64,000 nt of DNA, taken from contig JAEOTR010000016.1 of NCBI GenBank assembly GCA_016839705.1, positions 1 to 64,000 of the forward strand, written 5' to 3'. Position numbers and translations under genes: made by a program. This DNA comes from Promethearchaeota archaeon (GTDB taxonomy: Archaea; Asgardarchaeota; Lokiarchaeia; Sigyniarchaeales; SOKP01). This document shows, piece by piece, positions 41,589 through 55,677 of the stretch; positions within the stretch are counted from its first letter, which is position 1, and the number at the start of each line of letters is the position of its first letter. The notes below the pieces were generated by a model, which did no database searches, was not told where the DNA came from, and saw nothing but the letters and a program-made list of their open reading frames with translations.

Positions 41589-42218
41589 TTATTTCTTTTC
41601 TAATTTATTATTGCTTTTTTGAAAAATATAACATTTCCAATTCATTTCTATTAACTTTTTATCTAAATATCCTTTCCGATAAAAATAAAATGAAAATTGA
41701 CTTAAAATAAGTTTTAATTGTTTGAGAGTGAAGAAATATACTACTCTTTTAGTTTTCTCATTTTTAATTATACGTTTAATAATCTTTTGCCCTTCTCCTT
41801 TCTGAATAATTAATTCTAAAAATCCATTATTTTTTACTAAATGAGATAATATCTCAAATAATTGAGGTAGCTTTTCATGCGATATGTGTATTATTGATCC
41901 ACTTGAAAAAATACCATCGAATAAACCTATGCTTTCATTAAGTTCAAAATAATTCTTTACTATGAAAGTGCAATCAGGATTTCTTTTCCGAGCAATTTTA
42001 ATTGACTCTGAGCTAAAGTCTACTCCTACCACCTCAACACCTAAAGAATGTATTCTCATGCTTTCATGTCCTGGACCGCATCCCAAATCCAATATCCTCG
42101 GTTTAAACTTAAAATTAGATAAAAAATCTTTAATTGTTGGCATTAGGATTTCATTTGGATACCAATTCTTTGCTGTTTCTCCAGCTGTTAAATCGTAGTA
42201 TTTTCTAACTTGGTCCAT
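41589..42218 (-). CDS. Class I SAM-dependent methyltransferase
   Basis: ILDLGCGPG, GVDFS. Confidence 0.9.
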   Translation of the reverse strand: MDQVRKYYDLTAGETAKNWYPNEILMPTIKDFLSNFKFKPRILDLGCGPGHESMRIHSLGVEVVGVDFSSESIKIARKRNPDCTFIVKNYFELNESIGLFDGIFSSGSIIHISHEKLPQLFEILSHLVKNNGFLELIIQKGEGQKIIKRIIKNEKTKRVVYFFTLKQLKLILSQFSFYFYRKGYLDKKLIEMNWKCYIFQKSNNKLEKK

Positions 42219-47029: not shown

Positions 47030-48166
47030 TTAATATTTTGAAGGAGTTTTAGATTTTATTTTTTGTTTTGGGATGCCCTTTAACTTTCTTAACTCTTTTT
47101 CAAAATTTCTTTTTTCATTAAGAAATCTCTGTTTGTCTTTCTCTAATTTTTCCCTTTCCCGTTTTATTGTACTTTTATCGTTAGATAAGTCTAATTTCTC
47201 TCTTTCTAAACGTCTGAGGTCAATATTTAACCTTTTGAATTTTTCTTCTAATGGGGGTATTTTTTCAGATATGGAGTAGAATTTATTTTCAGATTTAGGA
47301 ATCTTACTTTCTAATTCTTTCATTCTTACCTCTTGTTGTCTTTTTCTGCTTTCAAGACTTTTTACATCATTTTCCACTTTATTCCTATATTTTCTTAGAT
47401 CTTCCTTTTTCTTATCAATCTCTCGGCCTTTCAGGTTTAGTTCATCTTTTTGATAACGTAATTTCTCTCGATTTTCTTTTAGCTTACTTTTTTCATCAGA
47501 AATCCTGTTTTTTTCATCAACTAACTCCCTCTTTAAGTTATTCACTTCTCGATTGAGGGTATCTCTTTCTTTAGTTAAATATTTAATTTCATTTCTTAAA
47601 TCTTCTAATTTATGCTCTAGATCTTCGTTAGTCTTCTCAAGCGCACTCTTTCTTCTTTCCATCCCAGGTATCTTCGTTTTTATATCCTTAAATTGGTTTT
47701 CAATCCTCTGTTTTTCTTGGTCTATTGAATCTTTTTCATTTCCTAACTCATCTCTAAGCTTATCTAACCTTTTCTGAAATCCCTCTAATTGAGCTTTCCT
47801 TTGATTTAATCTATCGTTTTCTTCTCTTTTTTTATCTTTAAATTGTTGTTCTCTTGCATCTAACTCAATTTTTTGTTTTTCTAAGTCATTTTTTGTTTTT
47901 TTAAGACTGTTCTGAATGATATCCCTTTTTTCACGAAGATTTTTTAGTTCAATTTCTTCCGTTTTCCGCTTTTTTTCAAGATCTTCTATATTTTCTCTGT
48001 AATTCTCAATTTGGGTAATGAAATTTTCCCATTCACCCTTTTCTTTATTAAGTTTTATTCTTTCCTTCTTAATCTTTTTTAACAAATTTTTATCAGCAAT
48101 CATGTCACCCTCGTCGTCGGGAGTTTTTTCTCGAATTTGATGTTTGGGAATAGGTTTATCATTCAT
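47030..48166 (-). CDS. Long K/E/R-rich coiled-coil protein
   Basis: About 330 aa of heptad-like charged helix; no ATPase head. Confidence 0.8.
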   Translation of the reverse strand: MNDKPIPKHQIREKTPDDEGDMIADKNLLKKIKKERIKLNKEKGEWENFITQIENYRENIEDLEKKRKTEEIELKNLREKRDIIQNSLKKTKNDLEKQKIELDAREQQFKDKKREENDRLNQRKAQLEGFQKRLDKLRDELGNEKDSIDQEKQRIENQFKDIKTKIPGMERRKSALEKTNEDLEHKLEDLRNEIKYLTKERDTLNREVNNLKRELVDEKNRISDEKSKLKENREKLRYQKDELNLKGREIDKKKEDLRKYRNKVENDVKSLESRKRQQEVRMKELESKIPKSENKFYSISEKIPPLEEKFKRLNIDLRRLEREKLDLSNDKSTIKREREKLEKDKQRFLNEKRNFEKELRKLKGIPKQKIKSKTPSKY

Positions 48167-48376
48167 ATTTTTTCGATCATCATCTTATTTTACTAATAAA
48201 TCCATATTAATTCTAATTCTAAAGTGTTTGCCAAAATTTTATAAATTTAGAGTAATTCTTTTCTTTCCTAATTCTATTTAAATATTCTAATTTCCTTTAT
48301 GTATATATATTTATAATAAAAGAGTTATACAGATCATACGTTAATTTAGCTTATTTGACAAGGTTGTGTATTTATA

Positions 48377-48769
48377 ATGGGATTTGACAATGAATATGAG
48401 GAGGGTTTAGAATTTGATGAAGATTTGGAAGAAGATTTAGATGATAAGTTGGATGAAATCCCCTCAGAAATTCCTAGCAAAGATATTAATTCTAAAACCC
48501 CCATCCCAAGGGCTACTTCTGAAGGAAAAAAAATTTCTGTTTACTTTATTTCAACCATCGGACCCGAGAAAAAGCAAAAATTGCTTATTAATAGTGGAAA
48601 TCTTGTTGGAGATATTAAGCAGACAGTAGCAAACTTATTCGCTTTAGATCCAGCTGACTTCTATTTGTCAGCACTAGGGATCACCATGGATGAACAAAAT
48701 CCTTTGAAAGAATATGAAGTAGATGATGGAGACGACATACTTTTAATCCCGGCTAGTATTGCAGGATAA
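48377..48769 (+). CDS. Ubiquitin-like protein ending ...IPASIAG, with acidic N-terminal extension
   Basis: beta-grasp pattern VGDIKQ...FYLSALGITMDEQNPLKEYEVDDGDDILLIP; C-terminal Gly. Confidence 0.85.
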   Translation: MGFDNEYEEGLEFDEDLEEDLDDKLDEIPSEIPSKDINSKTPIPRATSEGKKISVYFISTIGPEKKQKLLINSGNLVGDIKQTVANLFALDPADFYLSALGITMDEQNPLKEYEVDDGDDILLIPASIAG

Positions 48770-48787
48770 TCTCAATTTTATTTTTCT

Positions 48788-49582
48788 TTAATTATTCCTT
48801 TTTCTCGATGGAATCAGAGCAATTTCATCATCATCATCAATATCATAGTTTTGGATTTGCTTATCTTCAGATAGTAAAATTCCCCCTGAAGATAGAAGAA
48901 ATCCCTCCAATTCATAATTAAATAGTACTCCCACTCTTTTTTTAACTGTACTAATTAATTCAGTTGTATCAACAATGATCAACTTAGTAATCTCGCCTGG
49001 TTCAACTAGGGATCTAATGTACACACGGATCTGATCCTTGAGATTAATTTTATTTTTAGGTGGTATATAAAATATTTCCTCATCAGTTTGATCTCGATTC
49101 TTAAGCATATTATCGATTAATGCTTTTCGTTCATCCACATCAAAATAGAGCATTTCTCTAATAAAAAGGATTTTGTCAAGCTTTGATAATCCAAGGTTGT
49201 TTATTTTTCCTAATTCTTCCTTACTAAAAACTGAAAAAATATATTTGCTGATTATTGGAGAATCCTCATAAGATTCATTTGAATCAAGATATTCTTCAAT
49301 TGAAGGCAAAACCTCAAGATATTCATCGATAACATTCTCATCTATCCTATTGAAAGACTTAGTTTTCGGTGAAATTTTCTTATCTCTTATTTTATCATGT
49401 TGATGACCTGTCGATTGGATAACGGTATAGATTGTGCTAGTAGAGAGAACTGCAACACTCCCAATTGTTAGAATAAGAAATAATGGGGTGTTGTTTACCC
49501 CAAACAGGAAATAACTTACGTAAATCAACACAAAAATAGTATAAAGGGTTATAACGCTTAATGTTCTATATTTTTTCTTCAT
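48788..49582 (-). CDS. Membrane-anchored protein with C-terminal ubiquitin-like domain
   Basis: Two N-terminal TM helices; C-terminal YIRSLVEPG...FLLSSGGILLSEDKQIQNYDIDDDDEIALIP is paralogous to the flanking Ubls. Confidence 0.8.
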   Translation of the reverse strand: MKKKYRTLSVITLYTIFVLIYVSYFLFGVNNTPLFLILTIGSVAVLSTSTIYTVIQSTGHQHDKIRDKKISPKTKSFNRIDENVIDEYLEVLPSIEEYLDSNESYEDSPIISKYIFSVFSKEELGKINNLGLSKLDKILFIREMLYFDVDERKALIDNMLKNRDQTDEEIFYIPPKNKINLKDQIRVYIRSLVEPGEITKLIIVDTTELISTVKKRVGVLFNYELEGFLLSSGGILLSEDKQIQNYDIDDDDEIALIPSRKRNN

Positions 49583-49667
49583 AATTTTTTAATAAATTTG
49601 TTGGTCTAATTTTCAAATAAATAACTTAAAATATAAATTCCATTGGAATAAAATTGGAGTTTTTTTT

Positions 49668-50339
49668 TCAATCACCTTGAATTAACTTCCTAACCTTATT
49701 ATACTTCTTAATATCTAATTTGAATAATATTCGATTTTTATCTTTCTCAGTTTCTAATAATTTTAGATTTTCTAGAATATTGACATATTTTTTTATAGTG
49801 TTGTGATTTTTTTTCATACCATTTGCTATTTCAGTGATTTTAAATGGCTTATCTTCATTGGTTAGGAATTCTATTAATTTTAGAACAATATCTTTATTCA
49901 AATAATAATAAAACTTATCCAACTTTGGATTTGAATCATATTCAAAGAAAATCCGATGGTTATTGAGTTTTTCTGACCTGACAAATTTAAATTTTTCTAG
50001 ACAAGAAAGGTGCCATAGTGCTTGATTACTTCCGATCTTAAGAGTTTTCATTATTTCATTAATATTAGACGGATTTTTTTTTATGTAATTATAAATCTCA
50101 TTCCTTTTTGGATGTTCAATGATATTATTCTTCATTAACCGAGTTCCAGGGATGATTATTTTCTTTTTTATCAATGATTTTATTATTAACTCAATTTTAT
50201 TTCGGTTTAAATTAGGATTTAACCTTACCCTGTTACTTATAAATTCTATTATATCAGTGATCGAAAAGAATGTTTTTTTTGTTAGATATTCTTTTACTAA
50301 GCCAAGAACAATAGATTCTAAATTATCCAAGGAACTCAT
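49668..50339 (-). CDS. Multi-winged-HTH transcription regulator
   Basis: RNEIYNYIKKNP...WHLSCLEK; ITEIA...HNTIKKYV. Confidence 0.8.
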   Translation of the reverse strand: MSSLDNLESIVLGLVKEYLTKKTFFSITDIIEFISNRVRLNPNLNRNKIELIIKSLIKKKIIIPGTRLMKNNIIEHPKRNEIYNYIKKNPSNINEIMKTLKIGSNQALWHLSCLEKFKFVRSEKLNNHRIFFEYDSNPKLDKFYYYLNKDIVLKLIEFLTNEDKPFKITEIANGMKKNHNTIKKYVNILENLKLLETEKDKNRILFKLDIKKYNKVRKLIQGD

Positions 50340-50602
50340 AAGCCACTTTTAGTTTTTCGTTTCAATATCTTGTTAATACAGTGTAATACTCTCTCTATAA
50401 CAATAGTAAATATATAATATATATTAATAGGCATTCATACAATTTATAATATCATTTCTTTCACCCCCTATCGTATTTTTTTGCAACTATAAAGCTATTG
50501 ATCGCATTTCCTGCTTTACTTTTGCTTTATGAAAAAAGTTTAAATATATATTCAGTAATGTAGTAAAATAATCAATATTTAATCTGTAAAAAGTAATGAA
50601 TT

Positions 50603-51120
50603 ATGGCGAATGGGAAAGGTTTAACCTATTTAGGATTGATTTTAAGATTAATCGGTGCGGGTTTGGGCGGATATGTATTTTTTGATTATATTTAGCTCCA
50701 CTATTAGGATTTGGAGACCCTCCTGCAGAAGGTTCTGAAATAAATTCATACTACGTAGAAACCTACCAAGCAACCCTCACCCTACCTGATACATATGAAT
50801 CCCTTGATGGAATGATAATTTCATTTAATACAACCAAAACAGTTAACTTACACGTATTATATACTGGTTATGTAAGGATTATGACAACCCTTGGATTATA
50901 TGCTCAAATAAAAATCCTTCTTAATAGTACCATATTAACAACTAATCAATATTATGTAGAGGAGATTGGTTTTGTCGTTCAAGAACGATTTGCTGTTAAC
51001 ATGTAAAATTATATCTCTGCGCTACCTCCAGGAAATTATAATGTAACAGTATTAGGGATGTCCGATGATACTTCAACAAGTTTTTTTCAGAACTCACTCT
51101 ATATACAAATTCATACTTAA
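50603..51120 (+). pseudogene. Disrupted exported/membrane-anchored beta-rich protein
   Basis: Signal-anchor MANGKGLTYLG...GGYVFFDYI, frameshift near 50690, in-frame TAA at 51004-51006, then continues NYISALPPGNYNVTV...IHT*. Confidence 0.75.
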
Positions 51121-51346
51121 ATAATTAATTAATTCAAATTCCTCATTTTTTTTACCTCTATTAATAGTTCTTTATACTTTCCTGAAGATTTATTATCTTC
51201 TTTCTCATATGGGATCATGATACTTTTTTTTTAAATGAAAGAAAAACTACAATTTTATGCCAATTGATTTTATAATACCATTTTAACTCAATTTTATTAG
51301 GTTTTTAATAAAAAAATAAAAAAATAAAAAATTGGAAGTGATGTGT

Positions 51347-51688
51347 ATGAGTTTTGAAGATGAGTTTGATGAGGATTTAGGTGGGGAGAGACCTGTAAAT
51401 TCTAAGACCCCTTCATCTAAAACCCCTTCAGCAGGAAGAAAATTGACATTGTATTTTATGTCAACCATAGGCCCTGGCGAGAAGAAAGAAAAATTAACAG
51501 TGAATGACGGAAATTGCGTTGAGGATATAAAGCAGACATTAGGAAATTTATATGGACTTGATCCTAATGATTTTCATTTATCTTCTGGCGGAGTTACGAT
51601 GGATGAAAATAGCTCATTAAAGGATTACCATGTGAGCGATGGAGACGACATTCTTATGATTCCCGCGAGCACTGCCGGGAAAGCTTAA
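51347..51688 (+). CDS. Ubiquitin-like modifier precursor ending ...IPASTAG-KA
   Basis: beta-grasp VEDIKQ...FHLSSGGVTMDENSSLKDYHVSDGDDILMIP; directly upstream of E1; ATG at 51347 preferred by comparison with the paralogue. Confidence 0.88.
   Translation: MSFEDEFDEDLGGERPVNSKTPSSKTPSAGRKLTLYFMSTIGPGEKKEKLTVNDGNCVEDIKQTLGNLYGLDPNDFHLSSGGVTMDENSSLKDYHVSDGDDILMIPASTAGKA
51401..51430 (+). repeat. 15-bp tandem repeat encoding SKTPS-SKTPS
   Basis: TCTAAGACCCCTTCA / TCTAAAACCCCTTCA. Confidence 0.85.
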
Positions 51689-51714
51689 ATATTTTTCTTA
51701 ATATATTATAATAT

Positions 51715-51749
51715 AAGGGCGTTAAGCCCTTCAACTTTTTTTATTTTTT
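51715..51749 (+). terminator. Hairpin plus T-tract between Ubl and E1
   Basis: AAGGGC-GTTAA-GCCCTT followed by CAACTTTTTTTATTTTTT. Confidence 0.55.
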
Positions 51750-51761
51750 AAATAAATAATA

Positions 51762-52997
51762 ATGGTAATACTTATGGATAAGAATTCAGAATTTTTCGGA
51801 AAAGAGTTATCAGTGGAAGAGAGAAGTTTGTATGACCGTCAATTTCGTCTCGAGGGATGGTCTCAGAAATTGGTAAAAAATTCGAGGATATTAATTGCAG
51901 GCGTCGGTGGTTTAGGGTGTGAAATTGCTAAAAATCTATCGATGCTTGGTATCGGTCACTTAGATCTCGTTGATTTGGATATTATTGAACATTCTAATTT
52001 AAACCGTCAAATTCTTTTTGCGGGGGCAAAGATCGGAGAACCTAAAGCGGTTGTTGCAGCAAGAAAACTTAAGGACATTAATCCTAATATAGCAGTTAAA
52101 GGTTATCACACCTCTTTAGAGCGATTAAATCCCGCAATCTATCAAGCCGCTGATGTAATAATTGGAGGTCTTGATTCGATGAATACCCGTCTAAACTTGA
52201 ATGCTCAATGTATTAGGTTTAAAATCCCTCTTGTCGATGGAGGTGTATCTGGATATCACGGTCATGTATACACAATCTTTCCTTATCAAAATGCCTGTTA
52301 TGAGTGCAATCCCTTACCCGTCGTAGAGGGTGATGACATGGCGGCTTGTACAGTAGTAGGAATTCCTCGAAAAAGAATCCATTGTGTCTTTAAAGGAGAC
52401 ATGGCATTTAAAGAAAAACTTGATAGAGGTCCCAATCCTAAAAATGTAAATGATATCAAATTCATTCAAAAGGTTGCAAATGAATTAGTAAATAAACATA
52501 ATTTCTTACCTGAATATACGGTAGATGATATTGTAAGAATAATTGATAGACATGATCCGGGAATAATTACGATTAATGCGGTTATTTCCGCCTTACAATC
52601 CCATGAAGCCGTGAAAATTCTCCATTGGAAAAAGGGTCATAAAGGGCTTGGAGAACCAATTCAAAATTATGTGGTCTATAATGGAATAACTATGAAATTT
52701 TATCATATTGAAAAAAAAAGAAATCCAGAATGTTCTCAGTGTGGAAAGCACGTTAGAAGAGTATCAATAAAATTGAACCCTCATTCACCATGCGAGAACA
52801 TAATCAAAATATTAACTAAAAATGGGTTTAAACCTGATCCAGATTCAGAACCAATTCTTACTTTACAAGATTTTAATGATATTAAGATGGTTGATTTAGA
52901 ACAGAATCCAATTGAAAATGGTTTAAGAAATTATGAATTTATAACCGCAGCAGGCTTCAAAGATGGGGAAATTTTTGTAACCTTAAAATTGAAATAA
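51762..52997 (+). CDS. Ubiquitin-like activating enzyme E1 (UBA2/UBA3-like)
   Basis: YDRQ, GVGGLGCE, DLDIIEHSNLNRQ, CYEC and CSQC zinc pairs, catalytic-Cys segment CTVVGIPRKRIHC. Confidence 0.93.
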   Translation: MVILMDKNSEFFGKELSVEERSLYDRQFRLEGWSQKLVKNSRILIAGVGGLGCEIAKNLSMLGIGHLDLVDLDIIEHSNLNRQILFAGAKIGEPKAVVAARKLKDINPNIAVKGYHTSLERLNPAIYQAADVIIGGLDSMNTRLNLNAQCIRFKIPLVDGGVSGYHGHVYTIFPYQNACYECNPLPVVEGDDMAACTVVGIPRKRIHCVFKGDMAFKEKLDRGPNPKNVNDIKFIQKVANELVNKHNFLPEYTVDDIVRIIDRHDPGIITINAVISALQSHEAVKILHWKKGHKGLGEPIQNYVVYNGITMKFYHIEKKRNPECSQCGKHVRRVSIKLNPHSPCENIIKILTKNGFKPDPDSEPILTLQDFNDIKMVDLEQNPIENGLRNYEFITAAGFKDGEIFVTLKLK

Positions 52998-53078
52998 TAA
53001 TTTAACCAAAAAAACCAAATAATTAAAAAAAATAGAGAATAAAAATTATAAATAAAAATAATAAAAAGGTTTGATAAG

Positions 53079-53606
53079 ATGAGTATAAGAAGTAGTCGTA
53101 TTTCCCAAGATTTTGCAGGATTAAAAAAACTGTTAAAGACGGGTACTATAATTCAATTAAAACCATTTAATCCTAAAAAGAAGAGTATAGATCATTTAGC
53201 TATAACTATTAAAGGGCCAAAAGGCACTGTATATGCGGGAGGTGTGTTTAAATTAGAAATGAAATTCCCTTCCCAGTATCCTAGCCAACCCCCTTTCGTT
53301 AGAATGCATACTCCAATTTGGCATCCAAATTTTTGGCCAAAACCGACTGAATATAAGGGACAAAGAAATATATGTCTAGCTTTGGTAGATCCCTCTTTGG
53401 CGGGTAAAAAGGGTGGATGGAGTCCATCAAAAACAGCAGTGACAATTGTTCAAGCAATAATTGCAATGCTAAACACCCGTGGTAAATTTGTTAACCCAAC
53501 TGATGTTTTTAATAAAAAGGCAGCAATTGAAATGATGAAAAATCCTAAATTTTTCGAGAAAAAGGTTAAAAACTTAGTTAAAAAATATGCAAATACGAAA
53601 TGGTGA
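53079..53606 (+). CDS. Ubiquitin-conjugating enzyme E2
   Basis: GPKGTVYAGGVF, FPSQYPSQPP, HPN, active-site ICL, WSP. Confidence 0.95.
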   Translation: MSIRSSRISQDFAGLKKLLKTGTIIQLKPFNPKKKSIDHLAITIKGPKGTVYAGGVFKLEMKFPSQYPSQPPFVRMHTPIWHPNFWPKPTEYKGQRNICLALVDPSLAGKKGGWSPSKTAVTIVQAIIAMLNTRGKFVNPTDVFNKKAAIEMMKNPKFFEKKVKNLVKKYANTKW

Positions 53607-54442
53607 TTTCGCTAATGGAAGAAAAAGAATCAGCTAACAGTTCAATTAAAGACGTAATAAAGCAGAAAATAAAAGAAAAAATAAAAAAGGAATTATTAGA
53701 TGAAATACGTGAAGAGCTTCAATTAGAAGAAGAAGAATTAACTGAAGAAATTATTTCAATGCTTACACAAAGAGTTTCTAACGGTCTAAATATAAAACAT
53801 TCGAAGGCGCCCATCGTTAATATTTTAGAAAAAAAAGTCATAGAACCTCAATTAGAGCAAGAAGCCCAAAAGGAAACCTACATTACAATAAAGGCAACTC
53901 TTAAAATAGCAAGTCACGCTATAAAATATGCTAATCCTAATATACCTAAATCAAACTGGATTGAAGTTATAGGTATTCTCGCTGGAAAAATAGATAAAAA
54001 GACTGGTTTACTAATAATTGAAGATGCATATCCTGTTGGACATGGCAATGCAATCCATGCAAAAATGGATGATAAGAGAAATCGTAGAACGGGTTTTATA
54101 AAAGCTTTTGAAATAATCAAGAAAAATAAATTAGATATTTGTGGGTGGTATCATTCTCATCCTTGCTATGGATGTTTTATGTCACCCGAAGATTTTGATA
54201 CTCAAGCGAGATATCAGAAATTATGGGATAAAGCCGTTGCACTTGTTATCGATCCGTGCCTTATTGATGGAACTTCAACAGGTTTTGAGATTTATCAGGC
54301 AGATTTGAAATCAAAAACTTTCTATCCTCTATTATATGGAATTAAAGGATCGTTAGATATCCGTATGCTACCCGACATTTTAGAATTTATGAATCCAATT
54401 ATTCAAGGGAAAGCGGCTTATTTAGAATATGATAAAGATTAA
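53600..54442 (+). CDS. JAMM/MPN+ isopeptidase (Rpn11/CSN5-like)
   Basis: EVIG, GWYHSHPCYGCFMSPEDFDTQ, ALVIDP. Confidence 0.93.
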   Translation: MVISLMEEKESANSSIKDVIKQKIKEKIKKELLDEIREELQLEEEELTEEIISMLTQRVSNGLNIKHSKAPIVNILEKKVIEPQLEQEAQKETYITIKATLKIASHAIKYANPNIPKSNWIEVIGILAGKIDKKTGLLIIEDAYPVGHGNAIHAKMDDKRNRRTGFIKAFEIIKKNKLDICGWYHSHPCYGCFMSPEDFDTQARYQKLWDKAVALVIDPCLIDGTSTGFEIYQADLKSKTFYPLLYGIKGSLDIRMLPDILEFMNPIIQGKAAYLEYDKD

Positions 54443-54471
54443 ATTATATTATTGATGGTGGTTATTAAACC

Positions 54472-55677
54472 GTGGCTAAAACTAAGGTAATAATTTTACT
54501 GCTGATTGCATTTGCAATTATCGGCATAATACACGGTGCCATTCTAAATTCAGTTAATGTATTTGTAAGTTGGTTTTTAATAGGGATATGGTTAGTATTT
54601 ACATTTAAAGTTATAAAGAATATAAAGCAACATCGTGAATATCGTAGTCCACACAATACAGCATTTTTTACTATTGGTCCTGTTTTGATTGGAATTTTTT
54701 ATTCAATTTGGGGAAATTTTACAGGATTATTAGGAGAAAATCTCTTAATAAGCACAGATTTATATTTAAGTTGGTGGAGTATACTATTTGGGTTTCCATA
54801 TGTGTTTTATAGTTCAATCTCATTATACCGTTGTTTTAAAAAATACCGAGTAATTTATTTTGGGACAAAATCTGTAAATGCCCGTAAATTTGGCTATTTA
54901 TTAGGCATATCGGTTATATTTTTCATATCTATCTATTGGATTAGTTTCTATTCATTGATCGATTTTTATGAATCTCTTATAATACCACTTCATTTTTTAC
55001 TAGATCTTAATCTTCTAATACTGCTTGTGAGCACTATTCTAATAATAATTATTGCAGGATTATTTGGGTCACAGACTCAATTACCCCAATTAACAAGAGA
55101 TTATATAGCACAGCGTAGGAATAGATTAAACCAACTAACATCACCTAGAAGAAATAGTACACCTAATAGATATAGGGAAAGTGTTCGCAATACCACAAGG
55201 TCAAATCCAACACCTTCAGCTAGCACGGTAACCCGTACATCAAGATCAGTGAACCATTCATCCCGATCTACACCAACCGCACGAAGACGTTCTACAACTA
55301 CAAGAACTAAAACAAGTTCTCGAACTGTGAGTAGAGGGCCAACAGGGACACAGGTAAGAAAGAAACAGAGTACTAAAAAAATAACTAACTTTAATATATA
55401 TAAACCTAAAGCCGCGCGTTTATCATCTGAGGACTTTAAGTGTATTTTTTGCTTTAAATTACCAAAAATTCCTGAGGATAACGGTAGAGGTATAATTTTA
55501 TGTCCAAATTGTAGATACCCTGCTCATGCAGATGAATTTAAGGATTGGTTACAAAGTTCCAACCTCTGTTCTCGATGCAGTGCTCCTATTCCTACAACCT
55601 ATAAGAGAAATCCAAGAATAATACCGATTAAAACTTATTTAGTAATTGTAAAACATTTTATTGGCAATAAGAGATAA
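54472..55677 (+). CDS. Multi-pass membrane protein with C-terminal RING-like domain (putative E3 ligase)
   Basis: About 6 TM, R/S/T-rich linker, CIFC-x16-CPNC-x4-H-x2-E-x3-W-x6-CSRC. Confidence 0.8.
   Translation: MAKTKVIILLLIAFAIIGIIHGAILNSVNVFVSWFLIGIWLVFTFKVIKNIKQHREYRSPHNTAFFTIGPVLIGIFYSIWGNFTGLLGENLLISTDLYLSWWSILFGFPYVFYSSISLYRCFKKYRVIYFGTKSVNARKFGYLLGISVIFFISIYWISFYSLIDFYESLIIPLHFLLDLNLLILLVSTILIIIIAGLFGSQTQLPQLTRDYIAQRRNRLNQLTSPRRNSTPNRYRESVRNTTRSNPTPSASTVTRTSRSVNHSSRSTPTARRRSTTTRTKTSSRTVSRGPTGTQVRKKQSTKKITNFNIYKPKAARLSSEDFKCIFCFKLPKIPEDNGRGIILCPNCRYPAHADEFKDWLQSSNLCSRCSAPIPTTYKRNPRIIPIKTYLVIVKHFIGNKR

Follow-up and report, generated by a model that had tools for sequence, protein, structure and literature searches.

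Membrane ubiquitylation, as in endoplasmic reticulum-associated degradation (ERAD), endocytic sorting, and organelle quality control, is considered an elaboration that arose in eukaryotes. Could an archaeon run a ubiquitin-type tagging pathway of its own at the membrane? This question is raised by a locus of nine genes at positions 47,030 to 55,677 of a 64,000-nucleotide stretch of DNA (hereafter the window) from a Promethearchaeota archaeon of the Lokiarchaeia, which sits on contig C87 of a 3.36-Mb Asgard genome with 30% G+C. An initial annotation, made from the sequence, had proposed that the locus encodes a separate conjugation pathway with a modifier not ending in Gly-Gly, which acts at the membrane in ERAD-, MARCH-, or UFMylation-like quality control or sorting. 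We find that the locus is a complete, ancient ubiquitin-type cascade that departs from characterised archaeal systems in its modifier end, the form of its activating enzyme (E1), its gene order, and its membrane RING-like candidate ligase (E3).

A five-gene core operon

All nine genes were confirmed by open reading frame (ORF) listing and Pfam scan just where the initial annotation had placed them, and their catalytic motifs are intact. Five co-oriented genes form the core. They encode, in order, a ubiquitin-like protein (Ubl), an E1, a conjugating enzyme (E2), a JAMM isopeptidase, and a protein with six transmembrane (TM) helices and a C-terminal RING-like finger, which we call TM RING:

51347-51688, + strand: Ubl-B, the modifier of the operon (Pfam ubiquitin, 26.7-26.9 bits, cut-off 25.4)
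51762-52997, + strand: E1 activating enzyme, 411 aa (ThiF, 3.2e-59)
53079-53606, + strand: UBC-fold E2, 175 aa (UQ_con, 1.9e-26)
53600-54442, + strand: JAMM/MPN+ isopeptidase, 280 aa (JAB, 1.1e-12)
54472-55677, + strand: candidate membrane E3, 401 aa, hydrophobic (no Pfam family; hydropathy, AlphaFold2 (AF2) models, and weak profile matches)

As annotated, E2 and JAMM overlap (by 7 nt) and the remaining core gaps, of 73, 81, and 29 bp, are all below 85 bp. The operon is flanked by housekeeping genes, such as FolE2, and Rfam and tRNA scans of the window detected no RNA element.

The modifier and its Ala-Gly end

Ubl-B is built from an acidic N-terminal tail that bears SKTP twice, a beta-grasp core of the ubiquitin family, and a C-terminus reading ...IPASTAG, after which a Lys-Ala tail is encoded. 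Its start at 51347 agrees with the MSF(E/D) starts found among homologues. A second free modifier of the locus, Ubl-A, aligns with the same family, carries one SKTP, and is encoded in mature form, with a stop directly after ...IPASIAG; it has a counterpart gene in one relative of the genus (L029).

The Ala-Gly end proved to be widely kept. A search of 5.8 billion proteins returned 846 relatives of Ubl-B, the closest public copies being labelled Promethearchaeota or Lokiarchaeota. Among the best 120 of these, which are 77-97% identical to Ubl-B in BLASTP local alignments, ~90% terminate exactly at ...IPASTAG and the others add 2-4 residues. Ubls encoded next to E1 in other families and classes end in ASTAG, VSTAG, or TSTAG, plus 0-2 residues. 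More distant relatives, 1209 in number, came from 1.84 billion cluster representatives searched with a profile, and nearly all representatives read (at most 50% mutual identity) preserve (I/L)P-x-S-x-A-G followed by 0-6 residues; two deviate by one motif residue and still keep the Ala-Gly end. With this ending retained across the phylum, the proposal of a modifier that does not end in Gly-Gly holds.

Tandem genes bear on how the modifier might mature. One natural gene, P0241 (L048:59-1177), consists of three head-to-tail Ala-Gly Ubl units, and another, P0242 (L050:205-957), of two; the unit junctions read STAG-SEYM and STAG-ADDD, and each unit has its own acidic, SKTP-bearing N-terminal tail. 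P0241 was assembled from two independent samples. Both genes lie on metagenome contigs of ~1.2 kb, which are too short to hold neighbouring genes. Since some natural genes string two or three units together, we read the Gly of Ala-Gly as the processing site and the end of the mature modifier.

To which family does this modifier belong? The Pfam ubiquitin family (PF00240) matches 18 of 18 members of the Ubl family (best 9.9e-10), and Ufm1 (PF03671) gives no match at E ≤ 10 in any of the same 18; the lone PF03671 match in the genome (0.025) is on another contig. When the profile of the Ubl family was compared to the PDB, ubiquitin came first, BfUbb (a Bacteroides ubiquitin homologue) and Caldiarchaeum ubiquitin were among the top matches, and UFM1 was absent from the best 60. 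These comparisons place the modifier in the ubiquitin family, not with UFM1.

The same domain occurs in other settings. Ala-Gly Ubl domains form the C-terminus of several larger proteins (L024:9694-11448, - strand; L025:2225-3961, + strand; P0286; P0264; P0249), where the fusion partners are VWA (one of them also with a sub-threshold Cdc48_N match), a HerA-like ATPase, and a Roadblock-like domain recognised by eye, with no Pfam match. In one other family, a VWA protein with a C-terminal Ala-Gly Ubl adjoins the operon. Elsewhere in the genome of the studied archaeon, an orphan 78-aa Ala-Gly Ubl lacking the N-terminal tail is encoded outside any cluster (contig C43, 25283-25519, + strand).

E1, E2, and JAMM

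The best solved relative of the E1 is the catalytic subunit UBA3/NAE, which it matches over residues 35-355 (2.8e-37, 132 bits); UBA5 reaches only 57 bits. Besides an adenylation domain and two CxxC pairs, the E1 displays an AACTVVGIPR motif whose Cys aligns with the Cys in PMCTIASMPR of UBA3, which we take to be the UBA3 catalytic Cys. A C-terminal extension occupies the place of the ubiquitin-fold domain of UBA3, and the alignment reaches into that region. In the E2, WHPN and the putative catalytic Cys in RNICLAL align with Ubc15 and UBE2R, its best PDB matches. WHPN and NICL are invariant in orthologues with 72-93% identity, as is a 7-residue insertion between HPN and the Cys. The best PDB match of the JAMM protein is the Rpn11-like protease of Caldiarchaeum (CsRpn11, 6fjv, 7e-15), with EV..G and HSHP..S..D aligned; it is preceded by a charged and variable N-terminal extension of ~90 aa. 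Judged by these motifs, E1, E2, and JAMM all look functional. Elsewhere in the genome, contig C53 (21913-22431, + strand) encodes an orphan, unclustered paralogue of the E2 that shares 38% identity with it and in which HPN and the Cys are present.

The enzymes also bear on whether this could be an archaeal UFM1-type system, as the UFMylation-like role in the initial annotation would have it. The C-terminus of Ubl-B (IP-x4-G plus a two-residue tail, ASTAG-KA) resembles pro-UFM1, which is a resemblance only, and nine Asgard clades are reported to have UFM1 homologues (PMC12962969). Against this stand the family tallies (none of 18 for Ufm1, all 18 for ubiquitin), the lack of UFM1 among the best PDB matches, an E1 closer to UBA3 than to UBA5, an HPN-type E2, and a JAMM protease. 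UFM1 membership was rejected on these three counts (Pfam tallies, PDB profile search, and enzyme types), and we find a UFM1-type system scarcely credible. Since the Ubl family matches ubiquitin and never PF03671, the Asgard "Ufm1 homologues" of PMC12962969 most likely are another family.

A second, Gly-Gly system in the same genome

A second complete cluster lies on contig C30 (35030-37303; L032:5030-7303). It consists of a Ubl ending in VIGG-L, an E2-like protein (UQ_con, 41 bits), a 294-aa E1-like protein, and a 171-aa JAMM protein. A paralogous Ubl ending in VIGG is encoded on contig C13, and a small-GTPase-like gene adjoins the C30 cluster. Between the operon and this cluster, identity is only 27% for E1 and 33% for JAMM, the E2s are barely alignable, and the two Ubls have no detectable similarity and cannot be aligned. 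Because the genome holds this second, unrelated Ubl(GG)/E2/E1/JAMM cluster, the Ala-Gly operon represents, on sequence grounds, a pathway separate from the Gly-Gly system, in line with what had been proposed.

Conservation, linkage, and loss

Three other families of the taxonomic order (L022-L026, L030) have Ubl, E1, E2, JAMM, and TM RING arranged in this sequence, and so do three genomes from within the class and members of three more remote families of the phylum (L035-L041), where one contig is too short to include Ubl and E1. In the same-class and distant genomes, TM RING is 24-45% and E2 55-80% identical. The order recurs in every relative examined, so the five-gene arrangement is far beyond chance, and the synteny that the initial annotation had called for checking extends across families, class, and distant lineages. 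Taxon names such as Thor-, Odin-, Hermod-, and Hodarchaeota, which public proteins from metagenome-assembled genomes bear although they are >80% identical to those of this genus, are inconsistent and were excluded from these claims of range.

Co-occurrence was determined for 400 genomes drawn from the phylum, with the orthologous E2 set at E ≤ 1e-45. TM RING is found in 200 of the 400 and the orthologous E2 in 185, and the tallies per family nearly match: 117 of 134 for both in family f1, 20 of 22 (TM RING) and 19 of 22 (E2) in f16, and 0 of 19 for both in f19. Among the genomes listed, most that lack TM RING also lack E2, and conversely. Since the tallies nearly match per family, the operon is inherited and lost as a unit. 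Closed genomes illustrate both states within the order: one of 6.0 Mb has both TM RING and the orthologous E2, and another of 4.4 Mb retains a 45-residue RING remnant with a TAA stop (G032:C1:594198-594329, L031), with no orthologous E2 in the genome and no other operon gene near the remnant, as if the operon had recently been lost.

A dispensable system that is lost as a unit invites the reading that it is an antiviral defence module like Bil or CBASS Cap2/Cap3, which would tag proteins of the invader, and its gene content equals that of bacterial defence Ubl operons (PMC10557695). The remaining evidence makes this very unlikely. PADLOC gave only generic adenylation-core E1-E2 matches of at most 56 bits, compared to 200 bits to ThiF, with marginal E2 and JAB matches (0.002-0.003) and none for Ubl or TM RING. 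Unlike defence islands, which are patchy and fast-evolving, the system displays strong Ubl conservation (80-97% identity) over hundreds of copies, a fixed order, and family-wide presence, and its flanks are housekeeping genes.

A six-helix membrane protein with a RING-like finger

The last gene of the operon encodes six TM helices (approximately residues 1-200), an Arg/Ser/Thr-rich linker of ~115 aa, and the C-terminal finger. An AF2 model of the TM domain (residues 2-211) has six helices, with a predicted local distance difference test (pLDDT) score of 82 and a predicted TM-score (pTM) of 0.79. By hydropathy and by eye, the Lys/Arg-rich loops and the linker lie on the same side of the membrane as the N-terminus; because the loops are positive-inside and the helices number six, the prediction is a cytoplasmic finger, on the side of the membrane where the E2 resides. 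The TM domain offers no relative detectable outside its own family. Foldseek returned no significant structural match (best E 1.3), and VIA-align gave a best Z of 7.8, to designed helical proteins; HRD1 scored Z 6.5, with a root-mean-square deviation of 5.1 over 113 residues, which is within helical-bundle noise. The membrane component that had been proposed is thus present as a polytopic E3 candidate, and its ERAD- or MARCH-like character comes down to an analogy of architecture.

The finger is part of the last 92 residues, the best-conserved portion of the protein, and follows the pattern C-x2-C-x14/15-C-x2-C-x4-H-x2-E...W...C-x2-C. In 17 sequences from four families, C15, C18, C35, C38, H43, E46, W50, C57, and C60 are invariant, so that a Glu (E46) takes the sixth ligand position next to seven Cys/His. 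An AF2 model of the finger (pLDDT 77), when compared to the PDB with Foldseek, retrieved RING or U-box domains only, among the matches listed, the best being 3lrq (3.6e-3) and RNF4 (6.4e-3), with TM-scores of 0.5-0.66; the model thus suggests a RING/U-box fold. Profile evidence points the same way. Prok-RING_1 matches 15 of the 17 finger members, all sub-threshold (best 1.4e-3; 11.7 bits for the copy studied here, cut-off 29.1), and zf-RING_2 matches seven of them weakly. In hhalign, the finger also aligns with a soluble RING of the C4HC3 type that is encoded in the same genome and does reach the Prok-RING_1 cut-off (76% probability, E 2.3e-5 for the alignment), the ligand columns and the Trp being in register and Glu46 lying opposite the sixth Cys. 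From the alignment and the model, we read the finger as a C4HC3-type RING with Glu as ligand six. The "multi-pass RING" of the initial annotation is thus an inference from hydropathy, two AF2 models, and weak profile matches, with no match at the level of a Pfam family. Of the public copies listed, those that are named all bear the label "hypothetical protein", and a precomputed Pfam domain is recorded for none.

Is this protein the ligase? The cascade might be real and the six-helix protein not an E3 at all, its finger being an anchor, a receptor, or a substrate, and the E2 working alone or with another RING. The finger does lack one canonical zinc ligand and falls below Pfam thresholds, better-scoring C4HC3 RINGs are encoded on contigs C56, C64, C18, and C76, and the E1/E2 of Caldiarchaeum auto-modify without an E3 (PMC5654768). 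We nevertheless hold this to be unlikely, because TM RING is the sole RING-like gene kept in the operon, always as the last, across the phylum; because its presence or absence follows that of the E2; because its seven Cys/His, its Glu, and the Trp that aligns with the RING Trp are all invariant; and because its structural neighbours listed are E2-binding RING or U-box domains. The six-helix protein is thus a probable ligase.

Two more six-helix proteins with C-terminal Cys-rich RING-like fingers, of the pattern C-x2-C...C-x2-C-x4-C-x2-C...C-x2-C, are encoded in the same genome (contig C13, 43279-44256, - strand; contig C8, 2028-3026, - strand). BLAST shows no similarity between them and TM RING. 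The one on C13 lies ~1.4 kb from a Gly-Gly Ubl gene (41591-41845). Because of these two further proteins, membrane anchoring of RING proteins seems to be more widespread in this genome.

Accessory genes and a shared K-T-P motif

Upstream of the core lie the four remaining genes of the locus, which ORFs and Pfam bear out as the second free Ubl, membrane-tethered Ubl, winged-helix regulator, and coiled-coil gene of the initial annotation:

47030-48166, - strand: coiled-coil protein, 378 aa (coiled-coil-type matches only)
48377-48769, + strand: Ubl-A, the second free modifier, of the family of Ubl-B (Pfam ubiquitin, 0.0023)
48788-49582, - strand: membrane-anchored protein with a C-terminal Ubl domain (Pfam ubiquitin, 2.6e-5, residues 201-256)
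49668-50339, - strand: double winged-helix (wHTH) protein (HTH_5 and HrcA_DNA-bdg; NCBIfam ArsR/SmtB 4.5e-10 and SdpR 4.5e-9)

The coiled-coil gene, which is transcribed away from the Ubl genes, is kept beside the operon in most lineages examined, also divergently. Its product carries K-T-P at both extremes (REKTPD near the N-terminus and KSKTPS near the C-terminus), and in 11 of 11 orthologues read there is a K-[TV]-P within ~30 residues of both ends. In the Ubl tails, an acidic stretch is followed by SKTP once or twice, so the N-terminal tails of both Ubls and the two extremes of the coiled-coil protein have S/E-K-T-P in common, and these proteins keep it throughout the phylum. The motif also precedes the Ubl core in fusions with a zinc ribbon or with the Roadblock-like domain. 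We considered whether SKTP might be a genome-wide repeat and rejected this: it occurs only 18 times in ORFs of at least 60 residues, four of these being in the studied locus, and twice in one protein only in Ubl-B. This sharing of K-T-P between Ubl tails and coiled-coil protein, as read from the sequences, is new here. We hypothesise that the Lys of K-T-P is an acceptor site, which, by analogy to SUMO-2/3, would allow chains via the modifier's own tail; alternatively, the motif may be a docking site for a common partner.

The TM-anchored Ubl ends in SRKRNN and, because the terminal Gly is absent, presumably is not conjugatable. Full-length orthologues are found in four genera of the family, usually ~5 kb from TM RING. 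The wHTH protein, which is ArsR/SdpR-like with two winged-helix domains and holds the same position in one relative of the genus (L029), is a candidate local regulator. Within the 1-kb stretch between its gene and Ubl-B there is what appears by eye to be a decayed gene (50600-51120, + strand): a short TM-anchor ORF (start MANGKGLTYLG...), a frameshift, and then a beta-rich ORF that is interrupted by an in-frame TAA and resumes past the stop.

A proposed model for conjugation at the membrane

We consider it likely that the operon encodes a self-contained ubiquitin-type conjugation/deconjugation cascade, parallel to the Gly-Gly system, with the six-helix RING protein as its E3. Our observations are the set of genes with their catalytic motifs, their synteny and co-occurrence, the conserved Ala-Gly end, and the tandem genes, and from these we infer the chemistry, the E3 role, the topology, and the substrates as follows. 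The modifier would have a mature Ala-Gly end, the JAMM protein of the operon cutting after the Gly where a Lys-Ala tail or tandem units are encoded. The UBA3-like E1 would adenylate this Gly, load the modifier onto its catalytic Cys, and pass it to the Cys of the HPN-type E2. The E2~Ubl thioester would then dock on the cytoplasmic finger, and the six-helix E3 would steer transfer to lysines of membrane or membrane-proximal proteins, from which JAMM could also take the tag off. K-T-P of the coiled-coil protein and of the Ubl tails would serve in this scheme as an acceptor site or a docking site. The E1, E2, and JAMM steps are well grounded by homology, and the E3 step is plausible.

Several points weigh against this model. 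The evidence for all components is computational. The finger falls below every Pfam RING cut-off and offers no more than seven Cys/His as ligands, the AF2 model of it is of moderate confidence (the other four models have pLDDT of 58-65), its Foldseek E-values are weak (at least 3.6e-3), and the TM domain yields no functional clue. The operon is dispensable, as the searches failed to detect it in roughly half of the phylum genomes covered and in one whole genus of the same family (0 of 5 genomes, two of which are 100% complete). Finally, precursor processing by JAMM may be minor, since most operon Ubls need no trimming.

A bolder version makes this a membrane-directed pathway of the Asgard ancestor, in which a polytopic RING and an Ala-Gly tag act with an SKTP-Lys consensus and chains form via the N-terminal tail, as a forerunner of eukaryotic membrane RINGs and of SUMO-like modification; we regard this as a speculative and rather improbable extension. 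More modestly, ubiquitin-type tagging at membranes probably predates eukaryotes, because the Asgard operon is conserved and its probable ligase is a six-helix membrane protein. If this is true, pathway diversification and membrane-bound E3s existed before eukaryogenesis. The compact five-protein system lends itself to studying 1) the evolution of E1/E2 specificity for the modifier tail, with Ala-Gly and Gly-Gly in one cell, 2) the activity of a RING with a Glu ligand, and 3) the targets of an archaeal membrane ligase. Natural comparisons are possible as well because, of two closed genomes of the same order, one carries the operon (6.0 Mb) and the other lacks it (4.4 Mb).

Comparison with known systems

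It might be objected that none of this is new, the Asgard ubiquitin system having been catalogued since 2015 and the Ala-Gly end and membrane anchor being minor details. One Ubl homologue, P0100, comes from the LCGC14 marine sediment metagenome, which, going by the name, we take to be Loki's Castle data; if so, the first Lokiarchaeum data already contained these genes, and the E1/E2 would have figured in surveys of eukaryotic signature proteins (ESPs). Archaeal Ub-E1-E2-RING-JAMM operons are also well described (PMC5654768, PMC6043591, 10.1101/2023.07.25.550441). The characterised systems, however, pair a Gly-Gly modifier with a small soluble RING, a type that coexists here separately, and the listed public copies of TM RING lack both a descriptive name and a Pfam domain. 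As the initial annotation had supposed in knowing of no description, our literature searches yielded only Gly-Gly systems and ESP surveys, with no archaeal Ala-Gly modifier or membrane RING; no paper on an Ala-Gly operon with a membrane RING was found in the literature searched, Spang 2015 and Burroughs 2011 being outside its coverage. That the system is already known in substance thus strikes us as quite unlikely.

The operon-encoded system of Candidatus Caldiarchaeum subterraneum and one reconstituted from a Helarchaeia contig, with Gly-Gly modifiers and small soluble RINGs (PMC5654768, PMC6043591, 10.1101/2023.07.25.550441), are the obvious reference. Like them, the operon encodes together a ubiquitin-family modifier, a ThiF-type E1, a UBC-fold E2, a RING-type finger, and an Rpn11-like JAMM protein, and some of its modifiers have a C-terminal tail of the kind that JAMM removes. 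Compared to the Caldiarchaeum type, 1) the modifier ends in Ala-Gly instead of Gly-Gly and bears an acidic, SKTP-containing N-terminal tail, 2) the order is Ubl-E1-E2-JAMM-RING instead of Ub-E2-E1-RING, 3) the E1 is a 411-aa UBA3-like protein with a C-terminal extension, 4) the finger sits on a six-helix membrane protein with Glu at ligand six, with no small RING gene in the operon, and 5) the genome additionally holds a Gly-Gly cluster of the Caldiarchaeum type.

The finger shares the order and spacing of its ligands (C-x2-C...C-x2-C-x4-H-x2-X...C-x2-C) with Prok-RING_1 (PF14446) and C4HC3 RING-CH domains, and in a feature search bacterial Prok-RING_1 clusters were its nearest named neighbours (score 0.82), which is a lead only. 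It differs from both in scoring below the cut-off, in its invariant Glu at the sixth ligand position, and in the six-helix N-terminal domain. With Hrd1, Doa10/MARCH6, and MARCH proteins, TM RING would share several TM helices and, given the predicted topology, a cytosolic RING able to recruit a soluble E2. In contrast to these, no sequence or significant structural similarity of its TM domain to theirs was detected, no ERAD partners are linked to its gene, and it would work with a dedicated modifier instead of ubiquitin.

Eukaryotic modifiers offer four more parallels. UFM1 is similar in that a single Gly is exposed by removal of a short tail (tails are of 0-6 residues in other members here), a resemblance only. 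In the NEDD8 pathway (UBA3-NAE1, UBE2M/F), UBA3 is the best solved relative of our E1 over its whole length, and the Ala of Ala-Gly, counted from the C-terminus, presumably stands at the place of NEDD8 Ala72, on a simple reading of the sequences; here, however, only one E1 gene is present and the operon lacks an NAE1-like partner for it, the tag ends in Ala-Gly, and there is no cullin context. As in polyubiquitin, the head-to-tail units of P0241 and P0242 would need endoproteolytic release, although each unit here keeps its own long N-terminal tail. Finally, SUMO-2/3 chains form via a consensus Lys in the N-terminal tail, and the modifier of the operon likewise has a flexible N-terminal tail with a Lys-containing motif, which recurs in the neighbouring coiled-coil protein, a candidate substrate.

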